This document shows, piece by piece, positions 2,935 to 51,268 of a stretch of 64,000 nt of DNA. The notes under the pieces are model-generated. The model was not told where the DNA came from. It searched no databases and was given only the letters and a program-made list of their open reading frames with translations. The first letter of the stretch is position 1; the number at the start of each line of letters is the position of its first letter. The position numbers and the translations under genes were made by a program. Source of the DNA: an uncultured Candidatus Saccharibacteria bacterium (GTDB taxonomy: Bacteria; Patescibacteriota; Minisyncoccia; Phycocordibacterales; UBA918). The stretch covers positions 457,973-521,972 of the forward strand of contig CAYGLK010000001.1 in NCBI GenBank assembly GCA_964350985.1, read 5' to 3'.

Positions 2935-4200
2935 TTAACCAATCTTATCCTTACCCATATACTCACGTAGTTTTTCTGGAATCAGAATACTGCCGTCTTC
3001 CTGCTGAAAGTTTTCCAGTAGTGAAACGAGGATACGTGGTGTTGGGATGGCGGTACAGTTAAGTGAGTGTGCGTAACGCATCTTCCCTTCTGCGTCACGA
3101 TAACGAATATTAAATCTTCGTGTTTGGAAGTCGTGGAAGTATGAAGCTGAACTTATCTCTCTGTAAGTCTTTTCTCCTGGTACCCAGAGCTCAATATCAT
3201 ATTTCTTCACTTGTCCCTGACCTAAGTCACCACCGCAGTTTAATACCGTTCGATATGGAATTCCGAGTGATTCAATAAACTCTTCAGTATTGCGATTGAT
3301 CCACTCATGGAGACGGACACTTTCTTCATGTGAAGCTTCACACAAGACCACCTGTTCCAGTTTGAAAAATTCATGTACTCGAATTAGCCCTTTAGTATCT
3401 TTTCCATGACTTCCAGCTTCGCGACGATAACAAGGTGAGAACGCCAAAAACTTTGCTGGTAGTTGTGACTCTTCTAAAACTTCGTCAGCATAAAGACCCA
3501 TTGTTGAAACTTCTCCTGTACCGATCAGATAATCTTCGTCTTGAGTCTTATATACATCCTCAGCTTCGTTTGGTAGGTGTCCAGTTCCGTAAAGATTACT
3601 CTTACGAACAATACTCGGAACCAATAGTGGTTCAAAGCCTTTCTCTAAGAAAAACTTGTTAGCGTAGTTCCAAACCGCCCAAGAAAGTCGAGCGCCGTCA
3701 CCTCGAAGGTAGTAACCACGAAAACCATGAACTTTGGTCCCGCGCTCGAAGTCAGCCATCTTGTGTTTATTCATCAACTCTACGTGATCTTTAGCTTCAA
3801 AAGAAAAAGAAGTTTGTTCTCCCCACGTTTTGACTTCCTGATTATCAGCGTCACTATCACCATCAGGCACAGACATATCTGGAATGTTTGGTACTTGGAG
3901 CATTAATCCTTGCCATTCTTCCATTATTGGCTTCAGGGCTTCTTCTTCTTTCTGTAGATCTAGTTTAAGAACCTGCATCCCAGAGATAAGATGTTGTCTT
4001 AAAGCTGCATCATTTCCAGCCGCTGCAATTTCTTGTGAAGCTTTATTTTGTTCTGCTTTCTTAGTCTCAAGCTTGGTCATGATCTCACGCCGTTGATCAT
4101 CAATCTTAAGCAGTCGATCAATATCGATTTTAATCTTCTTTTTTTGAGCCGCTAGTTTTACTAGGTCAGAATTCTCTCTGATGAATTTAATATCTAACAT
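2935..4200 (-). CDS. serS: Seryl-tRNA synthetase
   Basis: 421 aa. N-terminal coiled-coil arm (MLDIKFIRENSDLV...), then a class II core with FRRE-like and GGxxG motifs, as in SerRS. Confidence 0.9.
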   Translation of the reverse strand: MLDIKFIRENSDLVKLAAQKKKIKIDIDRLLKIDDQRREIMTKLETKKAEQNKASQEIAAAGNDAALRQHLISGMQVLKLDLQKEEEALKPIMEEWQGLMLQVPNIPDMSVPDGDSDADNQEVKTWGEQTSFSFEAKDHVELMNKHKMADFERGTKVHGFRGYYLRGDGARLSWAVWNYANKFFLEKGFEPLLVPSIVRKSNLYGTGHLPNEAEDVYKTQDEDYLIGTGEVSTMGLYADEVLEESQLPAKFLAFSPCYRREAGSHGKDTKGLIRVHEFFKLEQVVLCEASHEESVRLHEWINRNTEEFIESLGIPYRTVLNCGGDLGQGQVKKYDIELWVPGEKTYREISSASYFHDFQTRRFNIRYRDAEGKMRYAHSLNCTAIPTPRILVSLLENFQQEDGSILIPEKLREYMGKDKIG

Positions 4201-4294
4201 AAAATATAGTCCAAGTATTATAACGCATCACTTCTCTAGGACGAAATCCCTTACTTAGCAACATCAAATGAGATCATGCTACACTTTTTAGAGA

Positions 4295-5235: not shown

Positions 5236-7596
5236 ATGAGTAAATACACCCTAGTAATTGTTGAGTCGCCAGCTAAGGCTAAGACTATTGAAAAATACCT
5301 CGGAAAAGATTACCGCGTGCTTTCTTCTATTGGTCACGTGCGCGACTTACCAAAAAGTAACAAGGATGCTGTTGATATCGAAAACGGTTTTGTACCGCGG
5401 TATATTATTTCGCCTGGAAAAGACAAAGTGATTGCCGGACTTCAAAACGCGGCCAAAAAAGCTGATGAGGTACTACTAGCATCCGACCCCGACCGTGAAG
5501 GAGAAGCGATTGCCTGGCATGTTGCCGAACTTATCAAAGAAGTTAATCCAAAGCTGAAGCGAGTAGCTTTCAACGAGATCACTGAGGCGGCTGTCAAAGA
5601 AGCTATCGCTCACCCGAGAGAGATTGATCTTAATCTCAAGGAAGCTCAAGAAGCGCGTCGAGTGTTAGACAGATTGGTTGGGTACGATTTATCTGGCTTG
5701 ATCTGGAAGAAAGTTCGTTATGGCTTATCTGCTGGACGTGTACAATCTCCAGCTCTTCGTATCGTGATGGAAAGAGAACGAGAAATCCGTGCTTTTATTC
5801 CTGAAGATTACTACAACCTTACAGCTAATACTGAAGCCAAAGGTAAAGCAATTCCCTTTTTCTGTAGTGTTGAACCAAAAGAAAAAGACGAAGCTGAACG
5901 AATCAAGAAAGTTGGTGAAAAATCTGACTGGGTAATTAAAGATCTAAAGGAAACTGAAGCAAAGCGAAGTCCAAAACCACCTTTTACAACTTCAACACTT
6001 CAACAAACAGCTTCGACTCGGCTTGGCTTTTCGCCTTCGAGAACTATGGGAGCTGCTCAAAAGTTGTATGAAGCAGGACATATTACTTATATGCGTACTG
6101 ACAGCCCAAACATCAGTGTCGTAGCGCAAAAGCAGTTGATTGCCATGATCAATAAAAGTTATGGCAAAAGTTATTTGCAACCTAGACAATACAAATCAAA
6201 GAGTAAGTCAGCTCAAGAAGCTCACGAAGCTGTGCGTCCAACCAACTTTAATAAAGACTCAGCTGGTACAACTGGTGACCAAAAAGCGCTTTACGAACTG
6301 ATTTGGAATCGTACTGTTGCCTCACAGATGGCTGACGCTACTATCAAACGATCGAAGCTCATTACTAACATCACAGATACAAGTGAAACTATTCCTGACT
6401 TCTCAGTTAATGGTTCTCGGGTTATTTTTGACGGATGGCTGAAAGTAGATACCAGGGCTCGTGGTGAAGACACTGAAGTACCAAAGATAAATGTTGGTGA
6501 CTCTGTCAAACTAAAAGATATTAGTATTGAAGCTAAACAAACTGAACCACCAAACCGCTACTCAGAAGCTGGTTTGATTAAAGAACTAGAAAAACGCGGT
6601 ATTGGTCGTCCATCAACTTACGCCTCAACCATGAAAACCATCATTGATCGTGGTTACGTTATTAAAGAAGGTCGAACTCTGATACCAACTGACACGGGCG
6701 ATGTAGTTTCTTCTTTCTTGGAAAAACATTTCTTGGAATATATAAGTGATACCTTCACTAGTGATATGGAAGATGAATTAGACGAAATTGCTGAGGGAAA
6801 AAGAACTTATGTTAAAACTCTAACTGATTTTTATCTCCCTTTCCAAAAAGATGTTGCCGGAAAAGAAAATATTGAAAAAATCACCAACCTTGGTCCGGGA
6901 CCAAAACAATTCCCTTGTCCTGAGTGTGGCGCTGATATGATCATTAAACTTGGTCGCGGAGGCAACTTTCTCTCTTGTGGACGCTTCCCTGACTGTAATG
7001 GATCAAGACTGATTGACGGTAGCGAACTTAAGCCTGACGCACCTTTAGGAACTGATCCTGAGTCTGGTCTTGAAGTATTTATCTTAAATGGAAAATTTGG
7101 ACCATACGCTCAGTTGGGTGAGACACCAGAAAAAGTAAAGGGCAAAAAACAAAAAGCACCCAAGCGTGCTTCCCTGCCTTCAGGAGTAAAGCCAGAAGAC
7201 GTCACTCTAGAAATGGCGCTAAAGTTTTTGACTCTGCCTCGCGAATTAGGAGCTCACCCTAAAACTGAAGAACCAATTATCGCCAACACTGGTCAATACG
7301 GGCCATACTTAGCTCATGCTGGAGACTTCCGGTCACTTAAAGGCAAAGATGATCCTTATACTATTACCTATGAACGGGCGCTTGAAATTTATAAAGAGCC
7401 GAAGCAAACTCGAAAAGGTGAAACTCTACTAAAGGAACTTGGTATCAATCCTGGTACTAAAAAACTAGTTAATGTCTATGAATCAAAGTCTGGACGCTTC
7501 CTCAGAAAAGGTTTTAAAAGAATTAGTATTCCAGACGAAATCAAGACAGAAGATATCACTATTGAAGTTGCGGTTGAACTACTTAAAAGAGGCTAA
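5236..7596 (+). CDS. topA: DNA topoisomerase I
   Basis: 786 aa. TOPRIM N-terminus MSKYTLVIVESPAKAKTIEKYLG, active-site region HITYMRTDS, and a C-terminal zinc-ribbon CPECG...C..C. Confidence 0.9.
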   Translation: MSKYTLVIVESPAKAKTIEKYLGKDYRVLSSIGHVRDLPKSNKDAVDIENGFVPRYIISPGKDKVIAGLQNAAKKADEVLLASDPDREGEAIAWHVAELIKEVNPKLKRVAFNEITEAAVKEAIAHPREIDLNLKEAQEARRVLDRLVGYDLSGLIWKKVRYGLSAGRVQSPALRIVMEREREIRAFIPEDYYNLTANTEAKGKAIPFFCSVEPKEKDEAERIKKVGEKSDWVIKDLKETEAKRSPKPPFTTSTLQQTASTRLGFSPSRTMGAAQKLYEAGHITYMRTDSPNISVVAQKQLIAMINKSYGKSYLQPRQYKSKSKSAQEAHEAVRPTNFNKDSAGTTGDQKALYELIWNRTVASQMADATIKRSKLITNITDTSETIPDFSVNGSRVIFDGWLKVDTRARGEDTEVPKINVGDSVKLKDISIEAKQTEPPNRYSEAGLIKELEKRGIGRPSTYASTMKTIIDRGYVIKEGRTLIPTDTGDVVSSFLEKHFLEYISDTFTSDMEDELDEIAEGKRTYVKTLTDFYLPFQKDVAGKENIEKITNLGPGPKQFPCPECGADMIIKLGRGGNFLSCGRFPDCNGSRLIDGSELKPDAPLGTDPESGLEVFILNGKFGPYAQLGETPEKVKGKKQKAPKRASLPSGVKPEDVTLEMALKFLTLPRELGAHPKTEEPIIANTGQYGPYLAHAGDFRSLKGKDDPYTITYERALEIYKEPKQTRKGETLLKELGINPGTKKLVNVYESKSGRFLRKGFKRISIPDEIKTEDITIEVAVELLKRG

Positions 7597-12140: not shown

Positions 12141-12385
12141 CCCGAGTAAAAGCAAAAAGCCAAGACACCTGTCTTGGCTTTTTGCTTTTAGAACCTGACC
12201 TGCGTCAGGTTCGTACTCGGGCGGGAGCCGCAGGCATGTTTTGGCTTTTCATTAAGCCAAAACAGCCGAGGCGGGGTCGAGAGTACTTACTAGAATAGGA
12301 GCGAAGCGAACTATTATAGTTAGTAACTCGTGACCGCATAGAAATATAACCTCCACGAGAGTGAAAGAGTTGGTTGGTTAAACTA
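12141..12385. repeat. tRNA-flank modular element, Trp copy. It contains an inverted repeat of the tRNA 3' end plus trailer (cccgcccgagta...tactcgggcggg) enclosing a terminator hairpin, then a box catgttttggc-N10-gccaaaacagccgag, then a degenerate ..ccacgagagtga.. box.
   Basis: Shares the box with 61865-61900 and the terminal box with copies A, B and C. Confidence 0.55.
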
Positions 12386-21517: not shown

Positions 21518-22085
21518 CAATAGTAAAAACCACCAACTTTTGTTGGTGGTTTTTACTATTGTCGTAGGGACTCGAAAGCCGGAACGTAACGGAGTGAAGT
21601 AAGGCAGGGTCGTGAGCGATATATTTTTAACGAGTTTACGAGTTAAAAATAATCGACTCCTGACCGAGTCCCGCTCCCGGCTTATCTGTACAAATGAGTG
21701 AGATTATTTTATGAACGAAGTGAAATAAAATAACCACGAGAGTGACCGAGTCCCTTTTGCTTTTGTGGTCACGAGTTACTAAGTCTTTTATTTCACTACG
21801 TTCATAAAAGTCTAAGTACTCTCGACCCCGACTTGTCGGCCCAAAGGGGCCCCGACTTCGTCTTTCAAGTCCTCTCCCGCGCGACAAACAGCAAAGCCCT
21901 AGAACAAATTGTTCTAGGGCTGCTGATTTGTGCGCGGGAGAGGAATCTTTCTCGTTACACGAGCGGTACAGGTTTCATATCGTACTCGCTTCGCTGCGTG
22001 CGATATATTCAACCTTTTCAAGTCCTCTCTCGAAAGCTAACGCTTTCTCCGCGCAAACTAAAAGCCCCGAAGGGCTTTCATTTTG
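21518..22085. repeat. Repeat-dense non-coding hub between tRNA-Leu(TAA) and tRNA-Leu(TAG). Components, in order:
- a terminator hairpin;
- a direct partial copy of the tRNA-Leu(TAA) 3' end (gagtcccgctcccggc, 21669-21684);
- the TTTTATGAACGAAGTGAAATAAAAT box (21695-21753) and its inverted copy (21783-21836), forming a ~140-bp nested palindrome;
- inverted and direct copies of the tRNA-Leu(TAG) 3' end (21873-21950).
   Basis: All repeats read directly from the sequence. I consider the ORFs predicted here spurious. Confidence 0.6.
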
Positions 22086-36437: not shown

Positions 36438-37604
36438 ATGAAATACTCACCAACAGATTTCCTAAAGATTGCCACTAACACGGCTGAACACTTTGGTTTT
36501 CGTACAGCTAACATAATCAAAAAGAATCCTCTTTGTAAAAATTGCGAGATTCCTTTGTCTTATGTCTCAAGCCCAGCCGACAAGAAAAATGACAGCCAAC
36601 AGTGTCTACTAAACAATGGTGTACTTTCGTTTTGTGAGGATAACCTACATGCGCTTGAAGCTCCGGTACTACTCTATTCTTTGGACCAACTACCAGAAGA
36701 AGATAAAACTGTTTTTACTTTTAATATTTTTAACGTCCAGAAAAGTATTGCTGAAGCGATATTGATTCAAGTTGGACGTTCTTTGATGCAAGAACTTGAT
36801 CATGGTGACCATGTAGTACGAATCAACTCTCTTGGTGATGCTGAATCTAACCTACGATACAGTCGAGAACTAGCAAACTTCCTTAGAAAAAGAATTGAGA
36901 CTATTCCACCAACAGCGCGTGAATTGATGAAAGAACACCCTATCCTTGCTTTGATGCACTTAATCGAAACTGATCACGAAGTAGCGCACCGTAGTCCAAA
37001 CCCACTGGAATTCCTTAGTGACCCTAGTCGAAAACACTTCCGGGAGATTGTTGAATACTTGGATATGACTGAGACCCCATACGAAATAGACCCTAAGATG
37101 CTAGGACACCACGAATATTATTCTGATGCTCTGTTTTCGATCGAAACTAGTGATCCCGAAGACCTGACCTTACCAAGAATCTCTGTCAAAGGTGGTCGTT
37201 ATGATGAATTTTTGTATCGAAAGACCAGAAGCCGTATTCCAGCAGCCGGAGCAGTAGTAACCTATAGCAATGGAAAGCAACCAACTAGAATGCCTAAAGC
37301 TAAGTCTGTAGAGCCCGAGATATATGTCGTCCAACTGGGCTTTGGTCCAAAAGTACGCAGTCTTTCAGTCATTGAAAAGCTCAAAGAAGCAGGTATTCAT
37401 GTCAGACATGACCTCGCTAACGACTCCCTTTCAGCTCAATTACGCGACGCAGAGGCACGAGAAGTGCGTTATGCCGTTATTATTGGTCAAAAAGAGTTTG
37501 TTGACCAAACAGTTATCCTGCGTGACATGAAAGAAAGAAACCAAGAAAACATCTCTATCGACGCTCTAGTCAAGAAAATGAAGCGCCAAATCTCAGTTTC
37601 TTAG
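36438..37604 (+). CDS. hisS: Histidyl-tRNA synthetase-like class II protein with a divergent N-terminus (the canonical motif-2 arginines are not visible)
   Basis: 388 aa. HisRS-specific INSLG..RYSRELANFLRK, motif 3 GGRYDEF..PAAG, and a C-terminal anticodon-binding domain. Confidence 0.55.
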   Translation: MKYSPTDFLKIATNTAEHFGFRTANIIKKNPLCKNCEIPLSYVSSPADKKNDSQQCLLNNGVLSFCEDNLHALEAPVLLYSLDQLPEEDKTVFTFNIFNVQKSIAEAILIQVGRSLMQELDHGDHVVRINSLGDAESNLRYSRELANFLRKRIETIPPTARELMKEHPILALMHLIETDHEVAHRSPNPLEFLSDPSRKHFREIVEYLDMTETPYEIDPKMLGHHEYYSDALFSIETSDPEDLTLPRISVKGGRYDEFLYRKTRSRIPAAGAVVTYSNGKQPTRMPKAKSVEPEIYVVQLGFGPKVRSLSVIEKLKEAGIHVRHDLANDSLSAQLRDAEAREVRYAVIIGQKEFVDQTVILRDMKERNQENISIDALVKKMKRQISVS

Positions 37605-39672: not shown

Positions 39673-40914
39673 ATGGAACAAATAAAATCAGACGTGGAAT
39701 CATTCGCACGTATTCGAGTAGTCGGAGTTGGAGGCTCTGGAAACAACGCCGTGAACTACATGGTGACCTCTAAAGTAAAAGGAGTTGAGTTTATTGCTAT
39801 TAACAGTGACTCTCAAGACCTACATCACTCACTAGCAAAAAAGAAAATTCACGTAGGTAAGAACCTAACTCGTGGACTAGGTGCTGGAGGTAATCCTGAT
39901 CTAGGACGAAGAGCTGCTGAAGAAACTCGTGAAGAGATTGCAAACGCAATCAAGGGATCAGACATGATCTTCGTTACTTGTGGAATGGGAGGTGGAACAG
40001 GTACAGGAGCTGCTCCAGTTGTAGCGAAGATCGCTCGAGAGAGTGGCGCGCTAACTGTTGGAGTTGTAACTAAGCCTTTCTTATTTGAAGGACAAGAAAG
40101 AATGCGTTTAGCACTTCAAGGTATTGAAGAACTTAAAAAAGAAGTGGACGCGCTCATCACCATCCCTAACGACAGACTCCTAGCAATCGTAGATCGTGAG
40201 ACTACTGTGCAAAACGCTTTCCAACAATGTGACAATGTACTTAAACAAGCGGTTGAAGGTATATCTGACCTTATTACAATGCCAGGTATCATCAACGTCG
40301 ACTTCGCCGATATCCGTAGTGTGATGGAGAACGCTGGTTCAGCCTTAATGGGTGTTGGAATTTCAACAGGAGAAAAGCGAGCCGAAGAAGCTGCGCAAGG
40401 AGCTATCAACTCTCCCCTACTTGAAGTTTCTATTACTGGAGCTAAGGGTGTCCTCTTTGCCATTGCTGGTGGAGACGACCTAGCGATGCTTGAGATCCAA
40501 GACGCTGCACGAGTAATCACTGAATCAATTGATCCACACGCTAAAGTTATCTTTGGAGCTATTAAAGATGACAAGCTAAAGAAGAACGAAATCAAGGTCA
40601 CAGTTATTGCGACTGGTTTCCCTGAAGAATCTTATTCCTCACAGACAACCATCTCAAGAAGAGTACCGACAGCTGCACCAGCTCGAGTTGAGCCAGAAGA
40701 AGCAGTGGCTTCAGAACCTTCTACACGAGGAAGAATCTTTAATTCTTTAACGACTCCGCGTCGACCAGAACCAGAAGCTAGTGAGGCACCAGCCGCACCA
40801 GCAAACAACGACATTCCGAAACGTGATCCAAAGCCAGTAGATCCAATCGAAGAAGACGATGGCGACGACTGGGGGGCAGTCCCTGCATTCCTTCGCCGGT
40901 CAAAACTAAAGTAG
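39673..40914 (+). CDS. ftsZ: Cell-division GTPase FtsZ
   Basis: 413 aa. [10 protein letters not shown], tubulin signature [17 protein letters not shown], and the C-terminal tail peptide [11 protein letters not shown]. Confidence 0.9.
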
Positions 40915-41069
40915 GAGATTTATTTCTACCTAATAAATAATATTTACTAGGTAGTAGGGACTGCCGGGCGCAGCGATACGAGTCGCCCCCCTCCTAGGGC
41001 GACGAGACAGCGAGCCGAGGTCACGAGCACTTAGTAGATTTGGAACGTAGTGAACAAATATACTTAGTG

Positions 41070-41117
41070 ACTTGGGACCAGTGCCAGCATTTCTGCGTCG
41101 TTCAAAGCTCAAGTAAT
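41070..41117 (+). repeat. Degenerate duplicate of the ftsZ 3' end, encoding ..[15 protein letters not shown]
   Basis: gacttgggaccagtgccagcatttctgcgtcgttcaaagctcaagtaa compared with the ftsZ 3' end gactggggggcagtccctgcattccttcgccggtcaaaactaaagtag. An in-frame TGA lies 19 codons upstream. Confidence 0.55.
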
Positions 41118-41280
41118 TGAGCTAGAAAAGACGCGGCCGGTGCGGCGGACTCATTGAGGGCTTTTGTGAGAATTCACAAAACAAAAGAACCAATGAGTGG
41201 ACAGCTCCTGTAAGGAGCCAACGAAGTCCACTTCACTACCAAATCTATATATACTTAGGTAAAACTTTATGGGAGATAGT

Positions 41281-41312: not shown

Positions 41313-41425
41313 AACTGACTCTATTTGAAAAACAAAACCCTCAGTTGACTGGAGGGTTTTGTTTTAAAGACAGAACCGAAGATTGTGGTGGTGGTATAAT
41401 TACACAAGTTTAATAACAAATAATT

Positions 41426-42745
41426 ATGAATAAAATTTTTCTAAATACTAAAGTTGTAGTAGTCCTACTAGTCGTCTTAGTCGCTGGTTTAGTTAACAAC
41501 ACTGCAGAAGCAAAAGCTAATTTTAGCAACAAAGTCACTTCTTTAGAAAAATCGTATACTGAAGGTGATCAAATCTCTTTTAATATAACCGGAACAGACT
41601 CAGATAGGAAAAAACTGACTAAAGACCTTGGTTATCACGTTCAGTTTAATGTTGTCCGAAAAAATTCCAAAGACTCAAACGGTGTTGGTTTTAACGCTGA
41701 ATACAGCTATGAACTAAATCAATGGGTGGGAAAATTTCTTGCACCAGAAGTAGGAACTTACAAAATTGAAATTGTGCTTTATTGCGCTACGGAAAAATGT
41801 GACCGTAATAATTACTCAGATTCTCAGCAAGTTATTAAAAAATCCTTTAGTGTAAAAAAGTCTAAGTCTAAGAAATTTAAAAACTCTACCGTTCTTAACG
41901 AAGGATATGTAACTAACGATTTTGCCAGTGATCAAAATCCAGCTATAGCAGAGCTTGTAGACGGAAGCTTCGTTGTATATTACAACTCAAGCACTCCTGA
42001 AGGAACTAATGGAATATTCGTAACAACATCAAAAGATGGTAAAAAGTGGACAAAGCCAAAGTTCTTTTCAGACAGCTGGGGAAATCTTAATGCCATAGCA
42101 GATAGAAAATATAATTTATTACTTCAAACCGGCGCTGAAGGTGGATTGTCAATTATAAATAACAAGAAAAAAGAGAGATCAGTTAAACCTACTGTTGCCA
42201 ATGACAGCGTTGGTTCAATAATAAAAGCGAAGGATGGATACTACTACGTTAGCTACAGCTCGAACAATCCAACCAATGTATATTTAACTAGGACAAAAAA
42301 CTTAAAAAGCTGGTCAAAACCAATTAAAATTTCTTCTGGATCAGACTTTGAGTTTGATTCATCTCTAACCCAAATGAATGATGGTTCATTTTATGTAGCC
42401 TACAACAGCTACTCAGACAAAGGGGTGAGCATTAAATACTCAACAGATGGAAAAAAATGGAAATCGGAAAAGACATTCCTCACTAAAACTGATGCCCAAA
42501 GTGGAATCTCAATGGTAGTTGTAAATAGCAGACCGGTAGTCTTTTGGTCTTCAAATTACATTACATATTACAGTTACAAAACAGCAACTGGTTGGACGAC
42601 ACCTGAGGTAGCTTTGACGGGAACCCCTCTTGGTATCGATCCAATAGTAAGTAAAGACGGCACTATTATTGCAGTTTATGCGACAGAACAAAATAATCAA
42701 CGAGATATAAAGATTAAAAACCTAGGCACACTCAACATAAAATAG
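41426..42745 (+). CDS. Secreted BNR/Asp-box repeat protein (sialidase-like beta-propeller)
   Basis: 439 aa. Signal peptide, then repeated S-x-D-G-x-x-W motifs (SKDGKKWT, STDGKKWK). A terminator follows at 41335-41366. Confidence 0.5.
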   Translation: MNKIFLNTKVVVVLLVVLVAGLVNNTAEAKANFSNKVTSLEKSYTEGDQISFNITGTDSDRKKLTKDLGYHVQFNVVRKNSKDSNGVGFNAEYSYELNQWVGKFLAPEVGTYKIEIVLYCATEKCDRNNYSDSQQVIKKSFSVKKSKSKKFKNSTVLNEGYVTNDFASDQNPAIAELVDGSFVVYYNSSTPEGTNGIFVTTSKDGKKWTKPKFFSDSWGNLNAIADRKYNLLLQTGAEGGLSIINNKKKERSVKPTVANDSVGSIIKAKDGYYYVSYSSNNPTNVYLTRTKNLKSWSKPIKISSGSDFEFDSSLTQMNDGSFYVAYNSYSDKGVSIKYSTDGKKWKSEKTFLTKTDAQSGISMVVVNSRPVVFWSSNYITYYSYKTATGWTTPEVALTGTPLGIDPIVSKDGTIIAVYATEQNNQRDIKIKNLGTLNIK

Positions 42746-42794
42746 ATAAAAATATTACCCTTGCGTTAACCGGGAATAATTGAGGTCCTGGAAT

Positions 42795-42847
42795 GTTTTG
42801 TTTTTTACCCTTATGCGGTAAAATAGCACCACTAGAAAATAATTTTG
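42795..42847 (+). repeat. 53-bp direct repeat, copy 1, carrying a promoter-like TTTGTT..TAAAAT and ending in the TTG used as the CDPS start
   Basis: gttttgttttttacccttatgcggtaaaatagcaccactagaaaataattttg. Copy 2 at 44182-44234 has one mismatch. Confidence 0.7.
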
Positions 42848-43543
42848 AGAGATTTCGTGAGAATAGAAAATTATCTAAACACCGATAAGGACGATTTAAA
42901 ATCTAGAAAATTTAATATTTTTGTTGGAGTTAGCCTTGGAAGCAAGTATTTTTCAAAAGAAAGAATTAAGGATTATTTGCTGTGGGCCTTAGCGCATACA
43001 AAGGAAAAAGTTGCCGTTCTCATTCCAGACAAAATACATGCGGTAAACCATGAAGTGAGGAGCAGTTACTCCAAAGAGCGTGCAAAAAACCTATCGTTTA
43101 GAGAGGGTGAAGAAGTTAAAGAAATTGTCGAAACCATCTTGTCAGAAATTGAACCTGAGAAGCGTTCGCTTGTGAATATTTTAAAGTGGGAAAATATTGA
43201 GACGAAAGAACATAAATCTATAGTAAAGATTTTACACAAGGAATTTAAGAATAATATAAACTTTAGAAACTCAATCATCGAAATAGTGAAGGATAGTATG
43301 AAATCAAAGAAGTTGACCGACTCTGATTATGAAAGACTTGCTGTTTACCCTCTCGAAGAGTTACCTATGCTAATTAATGGAATTGTACATAATGAATTGA
43401 TGTATACTTTACTTCCGTATCCTGGAACATCTAAAATTGATTATCTGGCGATTGACTTACAGGAAGGATTGAGTTTTCCTGAAGTAACAAATAAAATAAA
43501 GACAGGGAGAAAACTTCATCTAATCGAAGCTTATGCAACATGA
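42845..43543 (+). CDS. Cyclodipeptide synthase (tRNA-dependent), XYP subfamily
   Basis: 232 aa. FVGVSLGSKYFS....LLWA aligns with AlbC LIGISAGNSYFS....LQWA and YvmC LVGISPFNSRFS, including the catalytic Ser. VYPLEELP...TLLPYPG aligns with YvmC EYVIAELP...TLLAYHR, covering the Y, E and YP positions. Position 40 is S rather than N, and YP replaces YH, which marks the XYP subfamily. The start is TTG (or the GTG five codons in). Confidence 0.7.
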   Translation: MRDFVRIENYLNTDKDDLKSRKFNIFVGVSLGSKYFSKERIKDYLLWALAHTKEKVAVLIPDKIHAVNHEVRSSYSKERAKNLSFREGEEVKEIVETILSEIEPEKRSLVNILKWENIETKEHKSIVKILHKEFKNNINFRNSIIEIVKDSMKSKKLTDSDYERLAVYPLEELPMLINGIVHNELMYTLLPYPGTSKIDYLAIDLQEGLSFPEVTNKIKTGRKLHLIEAYAT

Positions 43544-44091
43544 CCATGGAACACAGACCAAATAAATTTGGAGCAGAAAAATCTATTGAGAATGTAGATT
43601 TTCGAATCGTTGAAAAAAATGAACAAGTCAAAAAAAACTTAATGGATCTTTTACATGAATATCCAAACCATTTTATTCCTGGACTCTTTGAAAAAACAGC
43701 TGAAAAAGATTTTGATGCTTCCGATGTTATGTTGGCATACGATGGAGACACACCTGTTGGATGTCTTATGTTCAATAGGTCAACTAAAGAATTTAATTGG
43801 TTAGCAGTTACGCGAGATACAAAAATGCGTAGATCAGAAATTGCTAGGAGTCTTTTTGAAAGCTTTTATCCAACCATTGAATCAGGGACAAAAGTCGTCG
43901 CTTTTCCAAATACTGAAGATGCATCCATTCCAGGTCAACCAACCTTTTCCGGTCAGAATTTTGATGCTGCGAGAAAACTATACAGATCAATGGGTTGGGA
44001 TATGAGTGAAGAGAATAGAGTCGAAAATAAATATGGCGAAGGTGCCCACGTTTATAGAGTAGAATGGGTTCCAAACAAAAATCCTGAATAA
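43540..44091 (+). CDS. GNAT-like acetyltransferase, translationally coupled to the CDPS gene (ATGA overlap)
   Basis: 183 aa. ..VGCLMFNRSTKEFNWLAVTRDTKMRRSEIARSLFESF.. resembles the GNAT beta4-alpha3 core, but the Gly motif is atypical. Confidence 0.4.
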   Translation: MTMEHRPNKFGAEKSIENVDFRIVEKNEQVKKNLMDLLHEYPNHFIPGLFEKTAEKDFDASDVMLAYDGDTPVGCLMFNRSTKEFNWLAVTRDTKMRRSEIARSLFESFYPTIESGTKVVAFPNTEDASIPGQPTFSGQNFDAARKLYRSMGWDMSEENRVENKYGEGAHVYRVEWVPNKNPE

Positions 44092-44181
44092 CAATAGAAA
44101 CCCATTTTGTACTAAAATGACGTTGATGATTGGTTACTAAAAAGACTCTTACTTAAACAAAACCTTTCAGTTAACTGAAAG

Positions 44182-44234
44182 GTTTTGTTTTTTACCCTTA
44201 TGCGGTAAAATAGCACCACTACAAAATAATTTTG
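44182..44234 (+). repeat. 53-bp direct repeat, copy 2, immediately upstream of and overlapping the trxB start. A terminator hairpin lies at 44155-44181.
   Basis: gttttgttttttacccttatgcggtaaaatagcaccactacaaaataattttg. Confidence 0.7.
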
Positions 44235-45164
44235 CCTTTTATGTTTGAATTGACGATTATCGGTGGCGGACCAGCTGGAACAGCGGCCGGAGTCTACGCG
44301 TCTCGAAAACAACTAAAAACTCTCTTGGTAACCAAAGAATGGGGTGGCCAAAGTACTGTCTCTCCAGATATTCAAAACTGGATTGGTACCACCTCTATTG
44401 CTGGCGACAAATTAGCCTCTGACCTTAAAGGTCACCTAGAGGCCTATGCTGGTGATTACGTCACTGTTAAGGGTAATTCTTTAGTTACAACCATCACTAA
44501 GTCAGAAGCTGGCTTCTCAGTCACTCTAGACTCAGGTGAAACTTTCGAAACTAAAACAATCTTAGTTGCCAGCGGATCAAAGCGTCGCCAATTACCCGCT
44601 AAGAATGCAGACATTTTCGAACACAAAGGTCTAACCTACTGTGCTAGTTGCGATGGACCATTGTTTAGTGGACAAGATGTAGTTGTTATCGGTGGCGGTA
44701 ATGCTGCTTTTGAAACAGCTGCTCAGCTACTTGCCTACACTAAGAGTGTTACCTTGCTGCAACGCGGTGGTATCTACAAAGCTGATCCAGTAACGGTAGA
44801 GAAAGTACTCAGTCACCCAAACATGACTGGCGTACTAAATGCTCAAGTAACTGAAGTTTCTGGTGACAAATTTGTTTCTGGACTAACCTACTTAGACGGA
44901 CAAACAAATGAAAGTACGGAGATTAAAGCTACTGGTATATTTGTTGAGATCGGAATGATTCCAAACACTGACTACTTAAAAAACGTAGTTGAACTAGATC
45001 AGTACCAAAGAGTAGCGATTGACCCATGGTCTCAGAAGACAAACACTCCTGGTATCTGGGCAGCTGGTGATTGTACCAACGTGCTCTACCACCAAAATAA
45101 CATCGCTGCTGGCGATGCTGTACGGGCACTAGAAGACATCTACGTTACACTAAAGACTAAGTAA
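44232..45164 (+). CDS. trxB: Thioredoxin reductase
   Basis: 310 aa. FAD site IIGGGPAGTAAGVYA, redox CASCDG, NADPH site GGGNAAFE. The start is the TTG at 44232 or the ATG at 44241. Confidence 0.85.
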   Translation: MPFMFELTIIGGGPAGTAAGVYASRKQLKTLLVTKEWGGQSTVSPDIQNWIGTTSIAGDKLASDLKGHLEAYAGDYVTVKGNSLVTTITKSEAGFSVTLDSGETFETKTILVASGSKRRQLPAKNADIFEHKGLTYCASCDGPLFSGQDVVVIGGGNAAFETAAQLLAYTKSVTLLQRGGIYKADPVTVEKVLSHPNMTGVLNAQVTEVSGDKFVSGLTYLDGQTNESTEIKATGIFVEIGMIPNTDYLKNVVELDQYQRVAIDPWSQKTNTPGIWAAGDCTNVLYHQNNIAAGDAVRALEDIYVTLKTK

Positions 45165-47199: not shown

Positions 47200-47781
47200 T
47201 TAGCCAACCTGTCTTATCCAGTCACGAGTTATGCTATGAATTCTACCTATTTCAATTTCAGGCAAAATCCCCGTATGCATTATTATATTTCTTGATAATT
47301 CAAGGTCGTTAAATCGAGAAGAAATCCAATGTTGATCAGGAAAAAGGTCTGAAAAATCTTCCCAATTATTCACAATGATTTGTGAAAGATTACCAAACAT
47401 CGTATATCCAATGAGAGAAGAGCTTCTTTGAGCATGGTATTTATTTTTCTCCTCTTTTGTTCTCAAATCATTTGCTGATTTTTTTACCCTTTCAGGGACA
47501 CAAATATCCCACCAAGCCTGCCCTTTTCTATCTGCAAGCCGATCTTCAATAAGGTCTCTTACCGCATTCTCTAGACAAAAGAAAACCTCATAAACATTTC
47601 CCATATTTTTCGCCTTGTTCAACAAAACTGGGCTAAAATCACTTTCTTCAATCGTAGCTAATTCAGTTTTATTCTCTATTCCAACTTCAATCCCTTCTTT
47701 TGCTAGAGACAATAGATCGTCTGTAGCCAAGATTCCGTTGAAAGCTAACTTTTTTAAAGATTTAATGTGTCTAGCTTCCAT
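47200..47781 (-). CDS. HEPN-domain protein (Rx4H motif SRNIIMH), Abi/Swt1-like putative RNase
   Basis: 193 aa. The C-terminal Rx4-6H motif is the HEPN hallmark. It is the second gene of a two-gene operon. Confidence 0.45.
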   Translation of the reverse strand: MEARHIKSLKKLAFNGILATDDLLSLAKEGIEVGIENKTELATIEESDFSPVLLNKAKNMGNVYEVFFCLENAVRDLIEDRLADRKGQAWWDICVPERVKKSANDLRTKEEKNKYHAQRSSSLIGYTMFGNLSQIIVNNWEDFSDLFPDQHWISSRFNDLELSRNIIMHTGILPEIEIGRIHSITRDWIRQVG

Positions 47782-47785
47782 ATAC

Positions 47786-48418
47786 CTAATCGACTAGATT
47801 ATCTCTAAGGCTTTTAAAAATCGCATTGTAGACACTAATATCAGTTGTTGCAGGCAGGTGTATTTCTATGTTGTGCTGAAAACTTATAGCTCTAGGCTCA
47901 TTCTGTAATTCGACCACTTCCTTAGTCGCAGGTTTTACGTCTGAAACCTTATCTGTGGTTTCTTTTGTAGAGATTTCTTTATTAGACAAACTCGGAGATT
48001 GTCCAAACTTAGCTAATGTAGTAAGTGTTTTGAAAGTTAGAAAATACCTAGCTACTGCCACTTCATCTTTTCCTGTTATTCTCGATATAGCTCCTTTTAT
48101 TTCATCATCCGTTTTTGTATAAATCTCAGTATCAATAATAAACAAATCTTTATAAAGATCTTTTATTTTTTCACCAAGAACAAATTTCCAGTCAGATGAA
48201 TCTCTGAGTCTGTCATAGTATTCAGTCGGAACACCATCCTCTGTCATAAAACCAAGTTTTTTTAAAAGTGGAATTATCGCTCTGTCATTTGTACTCGAGA
48301 ACCCTAATTGTTTAAGAAATTCATATGTAAATTTCGTAGGCTTTGCAGCAGCACGAATTTTACTAAAAATAGGTTCAATCTTATTATTAGTTAGTACGTA
48401 AGGATATGAATCAGCCAT
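47786..48418 (-). CDS. Hypothetical partner protein of the HEPN gene (N-terminal wHTH-like region, C-terminal domain)
   Basis: 210 aa. Its stop codon is 4 nt from the HEPN start. I recognise no family. Confidence 0.45.
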   Translation of the reverse strand: MADSYPYVLTNNKIEPIFSKIRAAAKPTKFTYEFLKQLGFSSTNDRAIIPLLKKLGFMTEDGVPTEYYDRLRDSSDWKFVLGEKIKDLYKDLFIIDTEIYTKTDDEIKGAISRITGKDEVAVARYFLTFKTLTTLAKFGQSPSLSNKEISTKETTDKVSDVKPATKEVVELQNEPRAISFQHNIEIHLPATTDISVYNAIFKSLRDNLVD

Positions 48419-50564: not shown

Positions 50565-50592
50565 GGTTCCAATTCGTACTACATAGGGTCAC
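50565..50592 (+). repeat. 28-nt tRNA-Glu-3'-like box, copy 2, followed by the hairpin aaagcaccctttgggtgcttttt
   Basis: Identical 28-mer. Confidence 0.7.
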
Positions 50593-51240: not shown

Positions 51241-51268
51241 GGTTCCAATTCGTACTACATAGGGTCAC
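51241..51268 (+). repeat. 28-nt tRNA-Glu-3'-like box, copy 3. It is followed by the same trailer and terminator as the real tRNA-Glu (gagtacaaaaaagagcgcctttgggcgctttttt).
   Basis: Over 45 nt match the region downstream of tRNA-Glu. Confidence 0.7.

Follow-up and report, generated by a model that had tools for sequence, protein, structure and literature searches.

How did a gene for a cyclodipeptide synthase (CDPS) come to lie between ftsZ and trxB, which adjoin each other in related genomes, and what is the function of the small gene that accompanies it? The question is raised by a 64,000-nucleotide stretch of contig CAYGLK010000001.1 from an uncultured Candidatus Saccharibacteria bacterium (assembly GCA_964350985.1, positions 457,973 to 521,972), hereafter the window, in which a CDPS gene and a gene for a GNAT-fold protein form a two-gene cassette bracketed by direct repeats immediately ahead of trxB. 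We consider it probable that the cassette pairs a CDPS with a GNAT-fold partner and was inserted between ftsZ and trxB by duplication of about 60 nt of the trxB promoter region.

The synthase and its predicted substrate pocket

The CDPS gene (42857..43543, + strand) encodes a 228-aa protein that scores above the cut-offs of two family models, with 57.3 bits against Pfam PF16715 (cut-off 27) and 70.1 bits against TIGR04539 (cut-off 45). Its best match in the PDB is 7qat (E 3.9e-29, about 32% identity over 207 aa), and the closest solved relatives, seven entries in all, represent a single enzyme from Parcubacteria RAAC4_OD1_1 (ParcuCDPS). A preliminary description of this DNA had proposed a CDPS of the XYP subfamily and suggested comparison with family and structure models, which bears the proposal out. 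Among 5.8 billion proteins searched there were 54 homologues, almost all of them 227-230 aa long, and those with named sources come from Patescibacteria, Paceibacterota or Gracilibacteria. Every homologue begins with M-(R/K)-I, matching the GTG at 42857 and not the TTG at 42845, and a database entry 100% identical to the window protein is also 228 aa long; this numbering is used for all CDPS residues below. The TTG codons at the ends of the repeats, previously taken for start codons, only open the maximal reading frames, and the starts are GTG 42857 for the CDPS and ATG 44241 for trxB.

An alignment of 31 CDPS sequences revealed invariant S26 (the nucleophile), D58, Y164, E168, Y188 and P189. 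These residues align with S26, D58, Y167, E171, Y191 and P192 of ParcuCDPS, whose roles have been probed by mutagenesis (PMC7613923); the AlbC counterparts of the catalytic set are S37, Y178, E182 and Y202. The XYP subgroup is characterized by Tyr-Pro at AlbC positions 202-203 with position 40 unconstrained, whereas NYH enzymes have His203 (PMC7613923). Because the invariant Y188-P189 pair occupies the 202/203 positions, we assign the enzyme to the XYP type; its "X" position is S29, while most clade members have Asn. Judged by these scores and residues, 42857-43543 encodes an XYP-type CDPS, as the preliminary description had read from the catalytic Ser, the Tyr and Glu positions and Tyr-Pro. 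The accompanying view that such an enzyme would be unusual in a reduced genome does not hold, since ParcuCDPS has been characterized (PMC5816076, PMC7613923) and more than 50 homologues are found in Patescibacteria.

Substrate preference can be approached through pocket P1, where ParcuCDPS recognizes histidine by means of Y55, E174 and Y189, and where engineered combinations of Y55V, E174L and Y189L turned that enzyme into a producer of cyclo(Leu-Pro) or cyclo(Phe-Pro) (PMC7613923). The predicted P1 residues of the window enzyme are L55, M171 and L186, which are constant throughout the window-type clade. This L/M/L pocket resembles those of the cyclo(Leu-Pro)- and cyclo(Phe-Pro)-producing mutants, and a hydrophobic first substrate is therefore predicted. 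The enzyme would be expected to form a cyclodipeptide from two aminoacyl-tRNAs, a hydrophobic residue occupying P1, and its relatives would form a sister clade to ParcuCDPS with a naturally hydrophobic pocket. This kind of CDPS is already exemplified in Patescibacteria and the window gene adds one member; CDPSs offer compact access to bioactive diketopiperazines, and ParcuCDPS already serves as a biocatalyst.

The GNAT-fold partner

The second gene of the cassette (43540..44091, + strand) encodes a single-domain protein of 183 aa from ATG 43540 or 181 aa from ATG 43546. The ATGA overlap with the CDPS gene described earlier is present at 43540-43543 but may be unused, because homologues begin at the second ATG; the two genes are at most 2 nt apart whichever ATG is used. 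All 38 homologues of the partner derive from Patescibacteria, all are annotated as hypothetical, and none carries a Pfam domain (0/38). A hidden Markov model (HMM) scan of 1.84 billion representatives placed the family in 26 representative clusters, and on this distribution it is a narrow one. No viral contigs with the partner family were found, and together with 0 PADLOC hits and no meaningful PHROG hits this led us to reject a phage or defence origin.

The genomic associations of the partner provide the main clue to its function. In every locus examined it adjoins a CDPS-fold gene, and these genes span three divergent lineages. The first comprises window-type CDPSs, at L007-L013, L100 and L107, where L-numbers denote loci, the CDPS and GNAT contexts among them having been retrieved via exact-protein look-ups and a metagenome scan. 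The second is represented by a close ParcuCDPS orthologue in L101 (E 6.5e-63 to 7qaw). The third, here termed family B, consists of proteins of ~250 aa without a Pfam or PDB sequence match, whose sequence-level link to CDPSs is weak (hhalign probability 1.5-8%) and whose CDPS fold was settled by structure search only. The gene orders encountered are CDPS-GNAT, B-GNAT, B-SET-GNAT (L103) and GNAT-B (L105). Furthermore, two divergent proteins from JGI metagenome contigs, P0215 (624 aa) and P0228 (709 aa), are GNAT-CDPS-GNAT fusions in which the first GNAT domain is of the window type and the domain junctions bear no trace of stop-codon read-through. On the sequences collected here, the CDPS and GNAT genes form a two-gene module that is confined to Patescibacteria. 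From the fusions, and from the linkage at every locus examined, we infer that the two proteins act jointly and probably form a complex, in which the partner would transfer acyl groups or handle substrate, its target being the product or an intermediate bound to the enzyme.

Proteins with a SET domain (lysine methyltransferase-like) constitute a second recurrent partner, encoded at 6677-7132 of L002 and 1988-2503 of L103, and a SET domain is fused to family B in P0151-P0153 (422-424 aa). In L011, the CDPS gene lies directly behind tRNA-Ser(gct).

Among the possible roles of the partner, we place acylation of the product, or of an intermediate bound to the enzyme, first, although only tentatively, and several observations weigh against it. 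The earlier assignment of this protein as a GNAT stands at the level of the fold: it has the GNAT alpha/beta fold, and its nearest structural neighbours are the N-alpha-acetyltransferases RimI and Naa10/20/30/50, which act on free alpha-amines. At the level of sequence models the assignment fails, with 17.4 bits against PF13508 (threshold 27), 16.4 against PF13673 (23.6), 12.6 against the RimI model TIGR01575 (cut-off 86) and no GNAT model above threshold. Motif A reads R-R-S-E-I-A instead of Q/R-x-x-G-x-G/A, lacks the central Gly and retains family-wide only the final Ala and Ile. With the Gly-rich CoA-pyrophosphate loop missing and all GNAT models having failed, use of acetyl-CoA is uncertain. 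Classical side-chain acetylation is disfavoured by the N-alpha-acetyltransferase folds and the degenerate motif A, and a hydrophobic cyclodipeptide would present no obvious free amine to acylate. The occurrence of one GNAT family with CDPSs of very different P1 pockets likewise disfavours tailoring of a specific side chain. Nor is the linkage strictly reciprocal, since a SET-domain gene takes the place of the GNAT gene after the CDPS in L002/L003 and a lone CDPS in L004 has no GNAT gene beside it.

Next in our ranking, and doubtful, is a protective, regulatory or non-catalytic role, in which the protein would be a self-protection or regulatory factor (for example acetylating aminoacyl-tRNA or a cellular target, like the TacT/AtaT toxins) or a non-catalytic subunit that aids the CDPS in binding tRNA, and not a tailoring enzyme. 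The degenerate motif A would suit such a role, as would the company of CDPSs with unrelated predicted specificities and the preference of the nearest folds for free alpha-amines, a group that a cyclodipeptide does not have. However, the GNAT-CDPS-GNAT fusions point to one shared substrate and not to a toxin and its antidote, PADLOC flagged nothing, and the motif B helix (A144, R145, Y148, G152) is kept together with its conserved Tyr. C75 and the N-T-E-D loop (124-127) are also invariant or nearly so.

We regard as distinctly improbable, and third in order, a tRNA-dependent peptide or protein modification system in which CDPS-fold enzymes of the candidate phyla radiation (CPR) and their GNAT and SET partners would act outside secondary metabolism, for instance by aminoacylation of a target followed by its acetylation or methylation. 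The identity of the operon and fusion partners, N-terminal-acetyltransferase-type GNAT and SET-domain proteins, fits this view, and the reduced genomes of the hosts hold few biosynthetic pathways. Against it, ParcuCDPS yields free cyclo(His-Pro) and cyclo(His-Glu), whether in E. coli or in vitro (PMC5816076, PMC7613923). The same GNAT partner accompanies a close ParcuCDPS orthologue in L101, and the window enzyme conserves all catalytic residues for cyclization. Fem-type chemistry was also considered and is unlikely for a single 183-aa domain (PMC12945691), as the partner does not have the two tandem GNAT domains and tRNA-binding helix of such enzymes.

Insertion at the ftsZ-trxB junction

The ancestral gene order at this site was examined by a TrxB scan of GTDB species representatives, which afforded 80 trxB loci (56-81% identical), all in metagenome-assembled genomes of Parcubacteria/Paceibacteria type, with synteny called by tblastn. 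Same-strand ftsZ lies directly upstream of trxB in 74 of the 80 loci, separated by a median of 129 nt (58 gaps of at most 300 nt, maximum 1608 nt). In the window, ftsZ (39673..40917, + strand) and trxB (44241..45164, + strand; thioredoxin-disulfide reductase family, TIGR01292 250 bits, PF07992) are 3323 nt apart, and the trxB genes of relatives align from ATG 44241. The intervening DNA includes, upstream of the cassette, a gene for a 439-aa BNR/Asp-box, GH43-like secreted protein (41426..42745, + strand; weak PF04616 match). No CDPS, GNAT or BNR gene occurs at any of the 80 related loci. GC content falls from 45-49% over ftsZ to 32-38% between about 41200 and 44200, including 33-38% over the BNR gene, and returns to 41-45% in trxB. 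Because the BNR gene is missing from the relatives' loci and the drop in GC spans it, on this evidence it belongs to the same 3.3-kb low-GC insert, of which the cassette is the last 1.3 kb. The expectation that trxB would directly follow the BNR gene where the cassette is missing was accordingly wrong, trxB following ftsZ instead. The cassette also does not recur with identical flanks among the relatives (0/80 loci), the pattern that the preliminary description had said would speak for an ancient resident.

The cassette is bracketed by a direct repeat, described earlier as near-identical copies of 53 bp. The 53-nt core (42795-42847 and 44182-44234) indeed has a single mismatch, with 40 nt exact, and the full repeat extends to 60 nt (42788..42847 and 44175..44234, both + strand) with 57/60 positions identical. 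A 39-nt core occurs exactly twice in the window and was matched in 0/100 shuffles. Copy 1, ahead of the CDPS gene, consists of an orphan 3' hairpin arm with a T-run (42788-42806), a -10-like TAAAAT (42819-42824) that sits 33 nt ahead of the CDPS GTG, and a 5' leader. Copy 2, ahead of trxB, comprises the corresponding arm, a TAAAAT at 44206-44211 as the putative trxB promoter, and the leader. In copy 2, the arm is the 3' half of hairpin T3 (44155..44190, + strand), a likely cassette terminator with a perfect 16-bp stem, a 4-nt loop and a T-run. This inverted repeat has a folding energy (dG) of -20.3 kcal/mol (z -6.7), and the left edge of copy 2 lies 2 nt from its apex. The equivalent arm in copy 1 has two mismatches and no partner, and its region has no folding advantage over shuffles (z = 0). 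Hairpin T1, located 3' of ftsZ (41329..41365, + strand; dG -19.4 kcal/mol, z -4.0), is a diverged version of T3, the local alignment of the two scoring 48, a value reached by 0/2000 shuffles. T1 and T3 enclose the entire block of BNR gene and cassette while the 60-nt repeats enclose the cassette, so the duplications are nested. A candidate third, decayed promoter copy at 42754-42770 was rejected, as it was matched by 39/2000 shuffles and 55/1715 genomic 42-mers.

Comparison with relatives identifies the older copy. The ~100 nt before trxB in these genomes hold a hairpin, AAACAAAACCnTTCA...TGAAnGGTTTTGTTT, followed by a conserved GGTACAATAGCnCCACTAnGAAATAATT that ends 7-12 nt before ATG-TAC-GAA, and this GGTACAATAGCnCCACTAnGAAATAATT element, as it precedes trxB in L017, L021, L025, L026 and L029, is the orthologue of copy 2. 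Since copy 2 together with T3 is orthologous to the relatives' trxB upstream unit, copy 1 is the duplicate; by this orthology copy 2 is the ancestral trxB promoter. The promoter call has a point against it, in that a simple sigma-70 scan did not flag the repeat, and it rests on the -10-like box being conserved in relatives. Both this box and T3 fell below the thresholds of simple promoter and terminator scans and were recognized by conservation and folding energy. The proposal that the cassette entered ahead of trxB by duplicating the promoter and start region of that gene is upheld for the promoter, given the orthology of copy 2 and the missing cassette in the 80 loci, but not for the start codon, which the repeat does not include.

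These features suggest the following course of events. The window belongs to a Parcubacteria (Paceibacteria) genome, and the ancestral order there would have been ftsZ, terminator hairpin, trxB promoter, trxB. Insertion would have duplicated a target of ~60 nt, from the 3' half of the terminator hairpin through the trxB -10 region and leader to 7 nt before the trxB ATG, such that copy 1 would supply a promoter to CDPS-GNAT, the 5' hairpin arm at the 3' end of the cassette would pair with copy 2 to rebuild a full terminator, and copy 2 would still precede trxB. With the copy 2 promoter kept and the terminator rebuilt, the insertion need not be polar on trxB, to judge from the anatomy. A single recombination could account for the duplication, by Campbell-type integration of a circular molecule with a homologous hairpin-promoter segment or by break repair near the hairpin apex. 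The distribution of mismatches, two in the orphan arm of copy 1 and none in the paired arm of copy 2, fits both routes and also simple decay of a useless arm. It is plausible that the 60-nt repeats could mediate loss of the cassette by recombination.

Origin in two steps is an unlikely alternative to a single event. A promoter-less cassette would have landed first, between trxB promoter and trxB or 3' of the BNR gene, and the 60-nt segment would have been copied later by a small duplication or gene conversion selected for restoring expression of trxB or of the cassette. The repeats are 95% identical, whereas the closest known relatives of the two cassette proteins share only 73% and 71% identity with them, and the repeat might therefore be much younger than the acquisition; five other cassette contexts are also without repeats. 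This course nonetheless requires two precise events where one is enough, and the 5' hairpin arm stands exactly at the 3' end of the cassette, as a single-event junction predicts. Moreover, the bracketed architecture is present independently in two other contexts, L101 and L004. In L101, a ParcuCDPS-type cassette lies between ~100-nt duplicates (4140-4236 and 5549-5648, about 90% identical) that reproduce the intergenic region in full, upstream stop codon and terminator hairpin included. In L004, the lone CDPS gene lies between 33-nt repeats (5821-5853 and 6757-6789, 97% identical) that begin in the last 4 nt of tRNA-Lys(ttt). By comparison, related control DNA (1.0 Mb) has about one repeat pair per 110 kb in which 20 or more nt are exact and the copies lie 0.5-3 kb apart, and three bracketed cassettes among about nine contexts are therefore far above background.

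That the arrangement is an assembly artefact, with the cassette misplaced between repeat copies or the repeat created by a chimeric join, appears exceedingly improbable. Contigs of the short-read graph do break at the repeat and the palindrome, leaving the junctions unspanned. Yet the exact repeat is only 40 nt, below typical read length, the source contig extends over 528 kb, independent Logan contigs (ERR3534985) reproduce both flanks of the repeat, and the unrelated assemblies L101 and L004 have the same architecture.

Insertion by promoter duplication has to be weighed against further observations. Five other cassette contexts have no flanking repeat, and no empty-site, circular or BNR-trxB junction was present in the assembled Logan contigs from ERR3534985, in which those encoding the exact CDPS and BNR proteins stop at the repeat or palindrome. 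Regarding the hallmarks of a genomic islet, direct repeats and an empty site in relatives are present, and a recombinase and a shared att core are not: no recombinase gene occurs within 10 kb on either side of the cassette, and the repeats in the three bracketed contexts (window, L101, L004) are local sequences unrelated to one another, with no common att/attC core. With no recombinase nearby, an integron or integrase origin was rejected; the hairpin apex GTTAAC is also at odds with the attC core.

The process may extend beyond CDPS genes. Two of the pairs in the control DNA likewise bracket genes: about 1 kb 3' of trxB, direct repeats of 125-220 nt enclose a 244-aa membrane protein in L026 (9922-10047, +1402) and a 134-aa reading frame in L030 (9526-9744, +1760). 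Because these genes are small and unrelated, the process is probably not CDPS-specific, and duplicative insertion may be general in these genomes. By the criteria used for the control DNA, the window has a single further pair, at 50565-50592 and about 51241-51268 (28 nt, spacing 676). Nested target duplications at ftsZ-trxB afford a rare view of gene entry into genomes nearly without mobile-element machinery.

A wider reading, speculative and unlikely as a whole, would make the GNAT-fold protein an obligate CDPS subunit across CPR and possibly DPANN archaea, in operons (some with SET) or fusions, that redirects the chemistry beyond a plain cyclodipeptide, and would have such cassettes spread by duplicative copying of the local terminator-promoter unit. 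If true, the redirected product might be an N-acylated dipeptide from the dipeptidyl-enzyme intermediate, or the outcome might be tRNA-dependent peptide or protein modification. Spread would then take place in recombinase-poor, competence-dependent genomes, each insertion being self-expressing and non-polar.

The end of ftsZ has features of its own. Seven genomes possess a detached second ftsZ tail (the last 11 codons and stop) 130-240 nt past the real stop: the window (41084-41119; real end 40882-40917), L023, L027, L031, L033, L040 and L043. The two window tails differ over their last 10 codons and stop by 9 synonymous changes and 0 amino-acid changes, and the arrangement resembles the relic of an insertion that entered ftsZ at its 3' end and supplied a substitute C-terminus. 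Between the window tails is a GC-rich conserved element of ~140 nt (40952-41091), also present at 12260-12335 (+) and 21767-21835 (-). With the window and related loci taken together, an nhmmer profile found 29 copies, frequently close to tRNA genes or to the edges of repeat-bracketed genes (e.g. L026), and no Rfam model matched the element at gathering threshold. A different, "type 2" element occupies the same position in L031, L033 and L043. Elsewhere in the window, a HEPN_Swt1-like protein (193 aa) is encoded beside a DUF5343 protein (210 aa) in a low-GC stretch (47200-48418, - strand), a pair that may be of toxin-antitoxin or defence type. A 388-aa protein encoded two genes upstream of ftsZ (36438-37604, + strand), with an HGTP anticodon-binding domain and a weak match to the HisRS catalytic domain, could represent a class II aminoacyl-tRNA synthetase, either divergent or paralogous.

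Relation to known systems

The flanking repeats recall attL/attR-bounded elements and Campbell-type plasmid integration in being direct repeats of the target with an empty site in relatives, and the L004 repeat begins in a tRNA 3' end. In contrast to those systems, no integrase or recombinase lies in or near the cassette, and the repeat is a local terminator-promoter unit that differs at each site. The partner shares with Fem/MurM, L/F-transferase and VlmA/PacB a GNAT fold in an aminoacyl-tRNA-using pathway, and the two GNAT domains around the CDPS in the fusions recall the double-GNAT layout.

The nearest known enzyme is ParcuCDPS from Parcubacteria RAAC4_OD1_1 (GenBank ETB63777.1), characterized in 2018 as a producer of cyclo(His-Pro) (44%) and cyclo(His-Glu) (56%) (PMC5816076) and crystallized in 2022 (PDB 7QAT, 7QAW and others; PMC7613923). 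It resembles the window enzyme in family, XYP subgroup, host phylum, length (230 versus 228 aa), S26, D58, the Tyr/Glu pair and Tyr-Pro, and differs in overall sequence (~32% identity) and in having Y55/E174/Y189 where the window clade has L/M/L. The ParcuCDPS papers cited here describe no partner gene (PMC5816076, PMC7613923), but the L101 orthologue has the same GNAT partner as well as flanking repeats; the same uncharacterized protein therefore accompanies a ParcuCDPS orthologue too.

A GNAT gene beside a CDPS gene is less atypical than the preliminary description had supposed, although this particular family had not been reported there. A GNAT-fold ligase in a CDPS operon was predicted for Rickettsiella grylli by Aravind et al. 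in 2010 (PMC2922099), and no PRISM domain occurs near CDPS genes more often than N-acetyltransferases (PMC5767969). The searchable literature contained nothing on this GNAT family, on family B or on the SET link. The conserved GNAT partner, with its fusions and its tie to a hidden CDPS-fold family, and the recurring duplicative insertion represent new variations on known themes. The tie to a CDPS-fold family that Pfam does not see suggests that mining by domains underestimates how common tRNA-dependent peptide chemistry is in ultra-small symbionts. Overall, the earlier operons share with the present cassette a GNAT-fold gene in an apparent operon with a CDPS; whereas those cases are generic predictions in other phyla, the partner described here belongs to a narrow family, restricted to Patescibacteria metagenomes and below GNAT thresholds, is linked to a CDPS-fold gene at all loci examined, and is fused to a CDPS in two proteins.

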